Shown: piece by piece, positions 18,882 through 19,615 of the stretch | Position numbering within the stretch: position 1 is the stretch's first letter | Layout of the letters: each line of letters opens with the position of its first letter | IMG/VR virus record: IMGVR_UViG_3300037076_000108 | DNA length: 26,379 nucleotides | Strand: one strand, 5' to 3' | From: a virus | Notes under the pieces: generated by a model | What the model was told of the DNA's origin: nothing | Database searches by the model: none | The model's input: the letters and a program-made list of their open reading frames with translations, nothing else | Position numbers and translations under genes: made by a program

Positions 18882-19178
18882 CTAATGACGCACCGGCTCG
18901 TCGTATTCGAGCAGCGGGCATTCTTGGGGCATTCCGACTTTGAGAAAAGGCGCTGCATGATAGCACTTCATGCCTTTTGGCATTTGCATCGGGCACTTGA
19001 GACACTTGCTGCATATTAGTCCACGGAGCGTTGTGCCTGGATGATTCAAATCTTGAAATTCAATCCATGAGCATTCGGGTGGAACCACTATATTGGAAGC
19101 AAGCGGGTACGAAGGATACGAAATCGGGCGGGCAGCACAGCCAGCCAACAACAAGCAGACCATCAAAAATTTTTTCAT
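18882..19178 (-). CDS. Small lipoprotein (signal peptide with lipobox LLAGC)
   Basis: Internal Met of the 136-aa ORF gives MKKFLMVCLLLAGCAARP..., a classic lipoprotein signal, then a Cys-rich mature part. This ATG overlaps the stop of the phosphatase gene (TAATG). Confidence 0.6.
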   Translation of the reverse strand: MKKFLMVCLLLAGCAARPISYPSYPLASNIVVPPECSWIEFQDLNHPGTTLRGLICSKCLKCPMQMPKGMKCYHAAPFLKVGMPQECPLLEYDEPVRH

Positions 19179-19615
19179 TAGTAGTCTTCTAAAAAGTCGT
19201 GCATGGCAAATTGGAGACGACTCATTCCACACGCCGTGGCTTCCTTGATAGCGTCGGCCTTGCTCAATTCCTTTGTGAACACACGATAACATGCCACAAA
19301 AGTGCCGGTCCTATCGCAACCTCTGCGACAATGAATGAGCCACACTCGGCCATCTTGCAGTGAAGCTACACCTTCTGCCATTTGCGCTTTGGTCGGAGCA
19401 TTGAACGGTAATTCACCAACCTGGATCGAAACAAATTCTTCGATGCCAGCCGCTAATACCGCATCGCCCTCATCTTTCAGAGAGAAGCCACCATCCTCGC
19501 CGTCTTTACGCAAGCACAATACAACTTGCACTCCAAGGGCTTTGAAAATCGGCCATGCCTCTGCATTAGGCTGGTCGGTACGATACACATGTTTGTCAAC
19601 TTGACGTAAATTCAT
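19178..19615 (-). CDS. Cys-based protein phosphatase (dual-specificity / tyrosine phosphatase, CX5R P-loop)
   Basis: 145 aa. VWLIHCRRGCDRTGTFVACY contains HCxxGxxRTG, the PTP/DSP active-site signature. ATAAATA motif 5 nt upstream of the ATG. Confidence 0.75.
   Translation of the reverse strand: MNLRQVDKHVYRTDQPNAEAWPIFKALGVQVVLCLRKDGEDGGFSLKDEGDAVLAAGIEEFVSIQVGELPFNAPTKAQMAEGVASLQDGRVWLIHCRRGCDRTGTFVACYRVFTKELSKADAIKEATACGMSRLQFAMHDFLEDY

Follow-up and report, generated by a model that had tools for sequence, protein, structure and literature searches.

Cysteine phosphatase and lipoprotein genes form a translationally coupled pair next to an MVP homolog in a T4-like myophage

Do a phosphatase gene, a lipoprotein gene, and an MVP homolog that lie side by side in a phage genome belong to one system, or do they merely adjoin? 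The question is raised by a stretch of viral DNA (IMG/VR record IMGVR_UViG_3300037076_000108; 26,379 nucleotides, hereafter the window) in which the three genes are neighbors on one strand. In eukaryotes, SHP-2 and PTEN bind MVP via SH2 and C2 domains, and an earlier note on the window considered the phage adjacency worth attention on that account. The sequence features that it had described (a P-loop, a stop/start overlap, a 98-aa lipoprotein, and a Cys-rich mature part) were all located in the window (Table 1).

Table 1. Coordinates of features at the phosphatase-lipoprotein locus of the window.
Feature	Position	Strand	Basis
Phosphatase gene, 145 aa; atypical dual-specificity/PTP-fold cysteine phosphatase without signal peptide	19178..19615	-	ORF, Pfam, PDB sequence matches, AlphaFold2, Foldseek, dN/dS
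Catalytic P-loop H95-C96-R-R-G-C-D-R102-T103 (HCX5R[S/T])	19307..19333	-	Sequence reading
TAATG stop/start overlap, phosphatase to lipoprotein	19176..19180	-	Sequence; junction in L003 is TAAATG
Lipoprotein precursor gene, 98 aa; mature part 85 aa with six Cys besides lipidated Cys14 (predicted)	18882..19178	-	ORF
Signal peptide with lipobox (MKKFLMVCLLLAG/C)	19137..19178	-	Translation; counterpart in P0009 is MKKFLIVSVLLLLAG/C
tRNA-Ser(CGA) with encoded CCA, 5' boundary of cassette	19627..19716	-	ARAGORN; Rfam tRNA model 42.3 bits (lax filters)
Stem-loop beginning inside lipoprotein stop codon	18851..18882	-	RNA fold -15.7 kcal/mol, z -3.84 versus shuffles
Sigma-70-like promoter match (TTGACA, 17 nt, TG-TATTCT) in lipoprotein-MVP gap	18795..18823	-	10/12 consensus matches; consensus match only
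MVP homolog	18747..16201	-	Pfam MVP_shoulder 1e-19, Vault_3 1e-7

The phosphatase ORF contains VWLIHCRRGCDRTGT (H95-C96-X5-R102-T103) and starts 11 nt from the 3' end of tRNA-Ser(CGA). Its TAA stop codon (19180-19178) and the lipoprotein ATG (19178-19176) have one base in common, and MVP starts 134 nt downstream of the lipoprotein gene. The phosphatase-lipoprotein pair was found in the window and in one relative only, contig L003 (91% identical), in which the outer stem of the stem-loop is identical and the TTGACA of the promoter-like site is kept. The stem-loop, which was not called by a consensus terminator scan, may mark where the two-gene unit ends on its 3' side, acting as a terminator or a processing site. 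An Rfam scan of the window returned tRNAs only, with no vault RNA or other family, and the T4 late-promoter motif TATAAATA had a single occurrence, distant from the locus and not above chance.

The claim that the first gene encodes a PTP/dual-specificity phosphatase held up, as Pfam, PDB sequence matches, the AlphaFold2 model, and Foldseek all agreed. Four Pfam PTP/DSP families scored above their gathering thresholds: PTP-NADK (37.8 bits), PTP-SAK (37.1), and Tc-R-P (28.7), each with a gathering score of 27, and Y_phosphatase3 (23.7 bits, gathering score 22.2). The classical DSPc (PF00782; 21.3 against 33.5) and Y_phosphatase (PF00102; 17.8 against 20.9) families fell below theirs, as did Y_phosphatase2 (PF03162, the PFA-DSP/Siw14 family; 22.6 against 27). 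The closest PDB sequence matches included TpbA (5e-6) and At1g05000 (1e-5). The AlphaFold2 model had a mean pLDDT of 94.7, a central parallel beta-sheet with flanking helices, and the P-loop between a strand (92-95) and a helix (101-113), as in the PTP fold. Foldseek returned 232 PDB matches at E<=1e-3 with this model, the best 50 of the 232 being almost all PTP/DSP-fold proteins, and TM scores of about 0.8 (0.79-0.82) were obtained against PFA-DSP1, DUF442, TpbA, Siw14, and SsoPTP. Among the nearest structural neighbors, PFA-DSP1 and Siw14 have inositol pyrophosphates as substrates and PTPMT1 a lipid phosphate. PADLOC, NCBIfam, and PHROGs were uninformative, the sole PHROG match being weak (phrog_17568, E 0.002, labeled thymidylate synthase).

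Residues H95, C96, G99, D101, R102, T103, and G104 were invariant across 121 aligned relatives, with P-loop variants within the family conforming to HC[RK][RK]G[SAC]DRTG, and dN/dS between the window and L003 was 0.09, indicating a conserved coding sequence. In the loop that precedes the P-loop (64-75), where the PTP superfamily has a general-acid Asp, no such residue could be picked out: E68 is conserved in the phage clade and is Gly in 98 of the 121 relatives, and at position 72 the window has Asn where most close relatives have Asp. Sequence and model together thus confirm the protein as a cysteine phosphatase of the PTP/dual-specificity fold, with catalysis predicted. In PTP chemistry the Cys of the HCX5R loop attacks a phosphomonoester while the Arg and the loop amides hold the phosphate, and a thiophosphate intermediate is then hydrolyzed; here Cys96 would be the nucleophile and Arg102 would hold the phosphate together with the loop amides, with hydrolysis of the thiophosphate expected to follow.

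The enzyme belongs with a bacterial stand-alone DSP-PTPase family (PTP-NADK PF22741, PTP-SAK PF22784, and Tc-R-P PF22785) that is abundant in Acidobacteriota. We collected 281 relatives, which have in common an HC[RK][RK]GxDRTG loop and, toward the C-terminus, a G-[ML]-S motif. About 14 phage-type sequences were found among 5.8 billion protein clusters; these 14 formed an exclusive clade by neighbor joining, set apart from the bacterial family by a DGEDGG insertion of their own and by residues D14 and E68. All of the best 80 cellular relatives came from Acidobacteriota (33-42% identity). A signal peptide, seen as a hydrophobic N-terminal extension with a median of 28 aa, was present in 95 of 107 bacterial relatives, mostly Acidobacteriota, and in none of the 14 phage-type proteins, all of which begin at the first core strand. 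In the window, the tRNA ends so close to the ATG that an upstream start is impossible. The phage phosphatase most likely descends, judging from sequence comparison, from this mostly secreted bacterial family, with its closest kin in Acidobacteriota. The phage clade appears to have lost the signal peptide, and the phosphatase should therefore act in the cytoplasm of the infected cell. It looks as though phages acquired a secreted bacterial enzyme, most likely from Acidobacteriota, and removed its export signal, which points to a new intracellular target; the acquisition also offers a hint of which hosts this T4-like lineage, otherwise unplaced, may infect.

As the earlier note had supposed, bacteriophages seem only rarely to encode a cysteine phosphatase of this type. 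A tblastn search of 50,697 phage records gave no true relative; its two matches were near-identical contigs labeled Acinetobacter phage, and the one inspected (H1) is bacterial DNA because the match lies among secA, ahpC, folC, accD, and trpA. A nucleotide search of the region against the same 50,697 records gave no match, and scans of IMG/VR with the single protein and with the clade alignment gave no relative. A metagenome scan with clade-specific peptides yielded nothing, and one with a degenerate P-loop DNA pattern yielded one phage-type locus (L023) and eleven bacterial ones. Neighborhood clustering of 80 bacterial homologs revealed no dominant conserved partner, the most frequent neighbor being a secreted MBL-fold gene (14 loci, one subclade). 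In the literature we found no tested function for members of the bacterial family and no publication that deals with a phage member of this clade.

That the second gene is a real lipoprotein gene, translationally coupled to the first, was likewise borne out by the TAATG overlap, by conservation of the lipobox and the Cys pattern, and by a dN/dS of 0.07 between the window and L003, indicating purifying selection; at the sequence level, the gene is confirmed. Its product has a basic n-region, a hydrophobic core, and the lipobox L-A-G-C14 (MKK-FLMVCLL-LAG/C), which matches the pattern [LVI][ASTVI][GAS]C and is kept in P0009, the L003 counterpart. A longer, 136-aa reading of the frame was rejected because in L003 a stop codon directly precedes the ATG (TAAATG). 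P0009 was the sole homolog in a word-indexed search (75% identity by local alignment, 82% over aligned columns), and all Cys are conserved between the two. The lipoprotein would be made by termination-reinitiation at TAATG, exported, and lipidated at Cys14, and may form up to three disulfides in the envelope.

The lipoprotein matched no Pfam, PHROG, NCBIfam, or PADLOC family, and an AlphaFold2 model of the mature part was unusable (pLDDT 42.6). HMMER against 1.84 billion representatives returned the protein itself and one mucin-like repeat protein (Mucin2_WxxW/CysD, PF13330), 11 WxxW repeats of which match lipoprotein residues 10-36 through the common motif C-x-W-x-E-[WF]-x-D-x-N-H-P; the E-value of this match is inflated by the 11 near-identical repeats. 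A Smith-Waterman comparison of the two scored 50, against 25 +/- 4.4 for shuffles. The rest of the Mucin2_WxxW domain, Cys spacing included, does not align, and the PF13330 profile matched neither the lipoprotein nor P0009 at E<=10. Kinship with mucin domains was rejected, the resemblance being confined to a 27-residue motif.

The two genes lie in a variable tRNA island. Homology by blastn between the window and the relatives L001, L004, and L005 covers the phosphatase ORF only (19616 to 19177-19185), and that to L002 reaches about 14 nt further, to 19164. The shared DNA thus extends from 1 nt ahead of the phosphatase ATG to the stop codon, and the gene therefore appears to move as a unit within the island. 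Each relative has different genes beside it (zinc-ribbon genes, tRNA-Asp, a methyltransferase, ThyX, and a Hydrolase_2 gene, among others), and at least nine phosphatase-bearing relatives with visible downstream DNA or gene calls have a next gene different from the lipoprotein or MVP; these contexts were read mostly from short contigs and in some cases from gene tables that lack the DNA. Close relatives with DNA upstream of the phosphatase mostly have it among tRNA genes, and in L004 it lies between tRNA-Leu and tRNA-Asp. A tRNA-Ser-specific role, for example on phosphoseryl-tRNA, was considered and rejected given this L004 arrangement, the proximity to tRNA-Ser reflecting shared synteny. In related phages, the phosphatase gene may move in gene-sized steps among slots between tRNA genes, and its pairing with the lipoprotein and position next to MVP would reflect recent local gene shuffling.

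The MVP side gave a matching picture. Phage MVP homologs are not new, having been reported in a preprint (10.1101/2023.11.10.566534). Six MVP-bearing viral loci from IMG/VR (L006-L011; MVP 58-79% identical) had neither the phosphatase nor the lipoprotein within 6 kb. In L010, whose MVP is 79% identical, tRNA-Ser(CGA) stands directly before MVP, and its DNA becomes homologous to the window again no earlier than 7 nt ahead of the MVP ATG. The MVP-bearing huge phages LR756500/501/503 gave no phosphatase match at E<=1e-3, 118-kb and 405-kb MVP contigs from IMG/VR had no phosphatase relative, and MVP did not follow the phosphatase in any phosphatase-bearing relative with visible downstream sequence. 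The meaning that the earlier note had tentatively attached to the MVP adjacency is therefore not sustained, since the phosphatase-lipoprotein-MVP triad was seen in none of the six MVP loci and none of the at least nine phosphatase loci. Only 81 nt of L003 lie beyond its lipoprotein gene, too few to reach the point at which MVP would begin, so the triad could occur there.

We lean slightly toward a reading in which the phosphatase and the lipoprotein make up a two-gene accessory cassette that a T4-like myophage carries in its variable tRNA island, not a component of an MVP system, with the enzyme acting on a cytoplasmic host phosphoprotein and the lipoprotein altering the cell surface. That all three genes instead form one module, in which the phosphatase would regulate or dock on a vault-like MVP assembly in the way of SHP-2 and PTEN with the eukaryotic protein, is very improbable. 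The genes do adjoin on one strand, and L003 homology runs through the lipoprotein and 70 nt beyond, toward the MVP upstream region, so the same arrangement may exist there. However, the six IMG/VR MVP loci, the larger IMG/VR contigs, and the huge phages all have MVP without the phosphatase, other genes follow the phosphatase in the at least nine contexts, the gap between the lipoprotein and MVP contains a hairpin and a promoter-like site, and the 145-aa phosphatase carries neither an SH2 nor a C2 domain. The lack of co-occurrence largely refutes such a module, and the eukaryotic scaffolding analogy, tempting as it is, should not be extended to the MVP locus of this phage. For the lipoprotein, an equally slight chance attaches to a lysis role as an outer-membrane spanin subunit whose coupling to the phosphatase is incidental. 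It is small and contains several Cys, its mature chain is Pro-rich at the beginning, and downstream of the gene for P0015, a distant phosphatase relative, come a cell-wall hydrolase gene (Hydrolase_2) and a gene of 79 aa; but no inner-membrane partner is adjoining or embedded (a soluble enzyme lies upstream and MVP downstream), the absence of a C-terminal membrane segment argues against a unimolecular spanin, and no PHROG spanin family matched. Most likely, by analogy with known phage lipoproteins, it alters the cell surface, for example in superinfection exclusion.

Returning to the accessory cassette, the phosphatase target is most likely a host phosphoprotein (pTyr, or pSer/pThr), although the substrates of its nearest structural neighbors and the basic [KR][KR]G start of its P-loop, which resembles that of PFA-DSPs, make a non-protein substrate roughly equally plausible. 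The fuller alternative, that the enzyme serves phosphate supply or counter-defense rather than protein signaling by acting on a cytoplasmic non-protein polyanionic phosphoester, such as polyphosphate, a pyrophosphorylated metabolite or alarmone, a nucleotide (NADP), or an RNA/tRNA end (end-healing of cleaved tRNAs), is possible yet rather doubtful. It draws on the top fold matches being inositol-pyrophosphate phosphatases (AtPFA-DSP1, Siw14) with PTPMT1 close, on the two basic residues that open the P-loop (HCRRG, as HCKRG in At1g05000), on the best Pfam models being PTP-NADK (a domain fused to NAD kinase) and PTP-SAK, on the tRNA-gene surroundings of close relatives, and on the secretion of most bacterial relatives, phosphoprotein substrates being scarce outside the cytoplasm. 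Yet the best sequence match among solved structures, TpbA, is a reported pTyr/pSer/pThr protein phosphatase (PMC2691606, PMC4409338), the PFA-DSP family model stays below its gathering score, and the acidic residues gained by the phage clade (D14, E68, and the DGEDGG loop) are unfavorable for polyanions. Shared synteny of one variable region accounts for the tRNA association, which is absent from the gene tables of the more distant phage-type P0011 and P0012, and neither an RNA ligase nor a kinase stood out as a partner in the subset of window ORFs examined. A more specific scheme would have the signal-less phage clade as a host-derived secreted phosphatase retargeted to the cytoplasm, with a job tied to its tRNA-gene home: clearing terminal phosphates from tRNAs cut by host anticodon nucleases, as a cysteine-phosphatase counterpart of the T4 Pnk 3'-phosphatase, or destroying a phosphorylated defense signal or alarmone, with the coupled lipoprotein adding an envelope-side function. 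Genome position and the names of the best-matching Pfam models speak for this scheme, which we regard as unlikely. Least probable is a sulfurtransferase of DUF442/TIGR01244 type in place of a phosphatase. The structural likeness to DUF442 proteins (3gxg, 2f46), the TIGR01244 label (JGI) and PF04273 of some bacterial relatives, and a Bryobacterales subclade with a secreted metallo-beta-lactamase-fold gene downstream are consistent with it, but the window protein scores 13.8 bits on TIGR01244 (cut-off 85.85), PF04273 is listed for 0 of the 14 phage-type proteins, and the full HCX5R(T) phosphatase loop is invariant. Identifying the phosphatase substrate could reveal a new host-takeover or counter-defense activity.

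Among characterized proteins, TpbA of Pseudomonas aeruginosa (PA3885; PDB 2m3v, 4r0s) is the best sequence match of known structure (E 5e-6 over residues 2-130; TM 0.79), and both are minimal DSP folds of about 150 residues with an HCxxGxxRTG loop. A dual-specificity tyrosine phosphatase of the periplasm, TpbA reportedly controls the diguanylate cyclase TpbB (PMC2691606, PMC4409338). It is secreted to the periplasm, whereas the phage enzyme has no signal peptide; at E 5e-6 the match is distant, and the P-loops differ (HCKHGNNRTG in TpbA, HCRRGCDRTG in the phage). AtPFA-DSP1 (At1g05000; 1xri, 7mog) and yeast Siw14 (6byf) are the top Foldseek matches (E 4e-8, TM 0.80; sequence E 1e-5), and the PFA-DSP P-loop, like that of the phage enzyme, starts with a basic pair; these are, however, eukaryotic inositol-pyrophosphate phosphatases with about 20% identity to the phage protein. 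We know of no established occurrence of their substrates in bacteria. For the lipoprotein, the closest parallels are T5 Llp and phi80/N15 Cor, phage lipoproteins that block receptors or exclude superinfection. Like the predicted window lipoprotein they are small and made during infection, and Llp is disulfide-dependent; they show no sequence or family similarity to it, and the Llp gene adjoins a receptor-binding protein gene, whereas the window gene sits between the phosphatase and MVP.

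The window is a metagenome contig of 26,379 nt on which every credible gene lies on the minus strand. It carries T4-type baseplate genes and, from ~13.9 kb on, 12 tRNA genes mixed with small ORFs. Its gp6-like protein shares at most 41% identity with any cultured phage, the top match being Pelagibacter phage HTVC008M. The 255-aa protein listed below is of unknown function, and its homologue in the related locus L001 is fragmented, with Pfam R2K_3 on one of the fragments.

Features of the window surrounding the phosphatase and lipoprotein genes
Feature	Coordinates	Strand	Details
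T4-type baseplate genes	1423-12045	-	PHROG baseplate wedge and hub families, E down to 1e-161
GIY-YIG-type homing endonuclease gene	9077-9601	-	Amid baseplate genes; PHROG 314, 3.5e-27
Major vault protein (MVP) homologue	18747..16201	-	848 aa; Pfam MVP_shoulder 1e-19, Vault_3 1e-7
Sigma-70-like match	18795-18823	-	TTGACA-17-TG-TATTCT, just 5' of MVP
Hairpin	18851-18882	-	Begins in lipoprotein stop codon; -15.7 kcal/mol, z -3.8
Lipoprotein ORF	19178..18882	-	98 aa; starts MKKFLMVCLLLAG followed by C
Mature lipoprotein	18885-19139	-	Motif C-S-W-I-E-F-Q-D-L-N-H-P in residues 10-36
Phosphatase ORF	19615..19178	-	145 aa; includes VWLIHCRRGCDRTGT
tRNA-Ser(CGA)	19627-19716	-	ARAGORN; missed by Rfam default filters
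CxxC zinc-ribbon gene pair	19886-20235	-	64 and 52 aa; stop/start overlapping
255-aa protein	21990-22757	-	PHROG 7313, 1e-60
tRNA-Leu(GAG)	26088-26175	-	ARAGORN; missed by Rfam default filters

The earlier note had described a CX5R-loop phosphatase gene whose stop overlaps the start of a lipoprotein gene, and both ORFs and their overlap were confirmed. The phosphatase TAA (19180-19178) and the lipoprotein ATG (19178-19176) share one base, as TAATG. A longer phosphatase N terminus is impossible because tRNA-Ser(CGA), with its CCA encoded, ends 11 nt 5' of the phosphatase ATG (42.3 bits to the Rfam tRNA model under lax filters). A 136-aa reading of the lipoprotein frame is excluded by the related locus L003, where the junction is TAAATG and a stop thus lies immediately 5' of the lipoprotein ATG.

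The phosphatase scored above the Pfam gathering scores of PTP-NADK (1.6e-9), PTP-SAK (4e-9), Tc-R-P (2e-6), and Y_phosphatase3 (5e-5). The proposed assignment to a phosphatase family therefore stands for these four PTP-type models, but not for DSPc or classical Y_phosphatase, which, like Y_phosphatase2, scored below their gathering scores. The nearest solved proteins by sequence were Pseudomonas aeruginosa TpbA (5e-6) and Arabidopsis At1g05000/PFA-DSP1 (1e-5). An AlphaFold2 model built with 121 relatives as input had a mean pLDDT of 94.7 and bore out the PTP fold, matching PFA-DSP1, DUF442 proteins, TpbA, Siw14, SsoPTP, Tk-PTP, and PTPMT1 at TM 0.79-0.82. Seven residues (H95, C96, G99, D101, R102, T103, and G104) were invariant in all 121 aligned sequences. 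The protein is a minimal atypical dual-specificity/PTP-fold cysteine phosphatase with predicted activity; by established PTP chemistry, the Cys96 thiolate would attack the phosphate, which Arg102 and the loop amides would bind. Its single PHROG match (19181-19615, minus strand) was phrog_17568, labelled 'thymidylate synthase' (E 0.002). On the 112-kb contig encoding the relative P0011, a ThyX gene lies immediately 3' of the phosphatase gene; the PHROG label may have been carried over in error from such a neighbour, or may point to a nucleotide-metabolism context.

Profile searching recovered 281 phosphatase relatives, 14 of them (42-93% identity to the window protein) from phage-like contigs with numerous small genes that lack annotation, along with tRNAs, zinc ribbons, ThyX, QueD-like PTPS, and DUF932. 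In a simple neighbour-joining tree, these 14 grouped as a clade of their own; they never exceeded 47% identity to bacterial members and were distinguished by a DGEDGG insertion and the acidic substitutions D14 and E68. All 14 begin at the first core strand without an N-terminal extension, whereas 95 of 107 bacterial relatives carry a hydrophobic extension (median 28 residues) with the look of a signal peptide. In a search of 185,579 species genomes, the best 80 matches (33-42% identity) all came from Acidobacteriota (Bryobacterales, Solibacteraceae, Terriglobia, Blastocatellia, and Pyrinomonas), which may include the host or the gene donor; none of these 80 was a prophage-like close copy. Downstream of the gene, 14 loci from Bryobacterales carry a gene for a secreted metallo-beta-lactamase-fold protein and a convergent ~650-aa gene. 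A further match, in 'Acinetobacter phage MD-2021a' (CAKLQH020000002.1 66371-74733), sits amid secA, ahpC, folC, accD, and trpA on a 254-kb contig that looks like a bacterial chromosome rather than a phage. Most simply, phages took over a secreted phosphatase from bacteria and its export signal was lost; on this reading, the enzyme would now act in the infected cell's cytoplasm.

The earlier note had also pointed to the adjacency of phosphatase, lipoprotein, and MVP as a possibly coincidental triad, to be given up if the three were not conserved together in any relative. MVP homologues in phages were already reported in a preprint (10.1101/2023.11.10.566534). In six IMG/VR contigs whose MVP is 58-79% identical to that of the window, neither phosphatase nor lipoprotein occurred within 6 kb of MVP. 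No phosphatase relative was found in IMG/VR, in scans that covered the 118-kb and 405-kb contigs holding two of these MVP loci, and no phosphatase match was found in the MVP-bearing huge phages LR756500/501/503. MVP is ~40% identical in these huge phages, and the genes beside it vary among these loci. In the closest MVP relative, L010, tRNA-Ser(CGA) lies immediately 5' of MVP, and an HNH endonuclease ORF (5201-5752) fills the gap between it and a zinc-ribbon gene. L010 lacks the phosphatase-lipoprotein segment, and its homology to the window restarts 7 nt 5' of the MVP start codon; the 870-nt segment was thus either gained by the window or lost from L010.

Seen from the phosphatase, the 3' neighbour differed in each relative tabulated: two zinc-ribbon genes (L001), tRNA-Asp (L004), a Methyltransf_21 gene (L005), a 175-aa gene after a 467-nt gap (P0001, 93% identical), ThyX (P0011), a 182-aa gene (P0012), a Hydrolase_2 gene (P0015), and other small genes (L107, L109, and L110). 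In blastn alignments to L001, L004, and L005, homology ran from 19616, 1 nt 5' of the ATG, to the stop codon (19177-19185); with L002 it had the same start and ran to 19164, ~14 nt into the following ORF. The phosphatase gene is thus exchanged as a gene-sized unit among different slots of the tRNA island. The L002 ORF (1837-1883) begins MKKILLEYSALI directly past the phosphatase stop (TAGCATG), where the contig ends; it has its first codons in common with the lipoprotein gene and may be a divergent, or a different, coupled gene. Zinc-ribbon genes are kept in L001 (9066-9444), L002 (610-961), and L010 (4994-5191), and their placement relative to the phosphatase varies.

The lipoprotein was retained only in L003 (phosphatase 91% identical), whose contig stops 81 nt past it. 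In the window, the lipoprotein stop and MVP start are 134 nt apart; the hairpin, whose outer stem is kept in L003, and the sigma-70-like match fit separate expression units for the two genes without proving them. L003 aside, the triad hypothesis fails, and nothing in the present data supports a tie between the window phosphatase and phage MVP.

The proposed lipobox and Cys-rich mature part held up, with a textbook lipoprotein signal and six Cys besides the lipobox Cys. No family was matched in Pfam, PHROGs, NCBIfam, or PADLOC, and among 5.8 billion clusters the sole homologue was P0009, encoded in L003 (75% identity by local alignment, 82% over aligned columns). The gene is nonetheless genuine: P0009 keeps the lipobox and all six Cys, and dN/dS against L003 is 0.07 at dS 1.4. 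Exhaustive HMMER searching of 1.84 billion representatives added one non-self match, the eukaryotic mucin-like P0123, with an E-value inflated by that protein's repeats. Its eleven Mucin2_WxxW repeats resemble mature residues 10-36 (C-x-W-x-E-[WF]-x-D-x-N-H-P), the likeness being to the start of mucin CysD/Mucin2_WxxW repeats. The pairwise score, at 50, stood clear of shuffles (25 ± 4.4), but the lipoprotein itself did not match the Pfam Mucin2_WxxW model; we treat the likeness as motif resemblance. The predicted structure (pLDDT 42.6) was too low in confidence for use. By the sorting rule of E. coli, the protein, which has Ala at position +2, would go to the outer membrane. A spanin role is unlikely given that no gene for an inner-membrane partner lies alongside, and a role like that of Llp, Cor, or similar phage lipoproteins is a guess by analogy. 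The lipoprotein is an orphan.

Family, fold, and invariant residues point to no single substrate for the phosphatase. Among the closest characterised enzymes, TpbA and SsoPTP act on phosphoproteins, PFA-DSP1 and Siw14 on inositol pyrophosphates, and PTPMT1 on a lipid phosphate. In most close relatives with upstream DNA, the phosphatase lies a few hundred bases from tRNA genes, surroundings that could point to RNA ends or a tRNA-related molecule as substrate. Moreover, the top-scoring Pfam models derive from NAD kinase-linked proteins and a multi-domain 'Swiss army knife' protein; the latter domain presumably comes from an RNA-repair context. The same nickname is borne by an RNA-end-processing HAD phosphatase (PMC9503650). 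However, the loci near tRNAs correspond by synteny to a single variable region, the adjacent tRNA is not constant (Ser, Leu, Asp, or Met), and gene tables leave no space for an adjoining tRNA at the distant copies P0011 and P0012. For these reasons we hold a non-protein substrate to be somewhat doubtful, a serious rival and not the leading explanation.

Overall, the finding is genuine, if modest. It comprises a rare accessory phosphatase, captured by phages in the simplest reading, and a partner lipoprotein that lacks an explanation, while the MVP link is refuted; the change of compartment is its interesting aspect. Membership tests placed the enzyme in the PTP superfamily and with the bacterial DSP-PTPase models; those for classical DSPc, classical PTP, and TIGR01244 failed. 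The tests for PFA-DSP (by profile score) and for a TpbA-type periplasmic location failed as well. The enzyme is a new phage-specific branch, without signal peptide, of a known superfamily.
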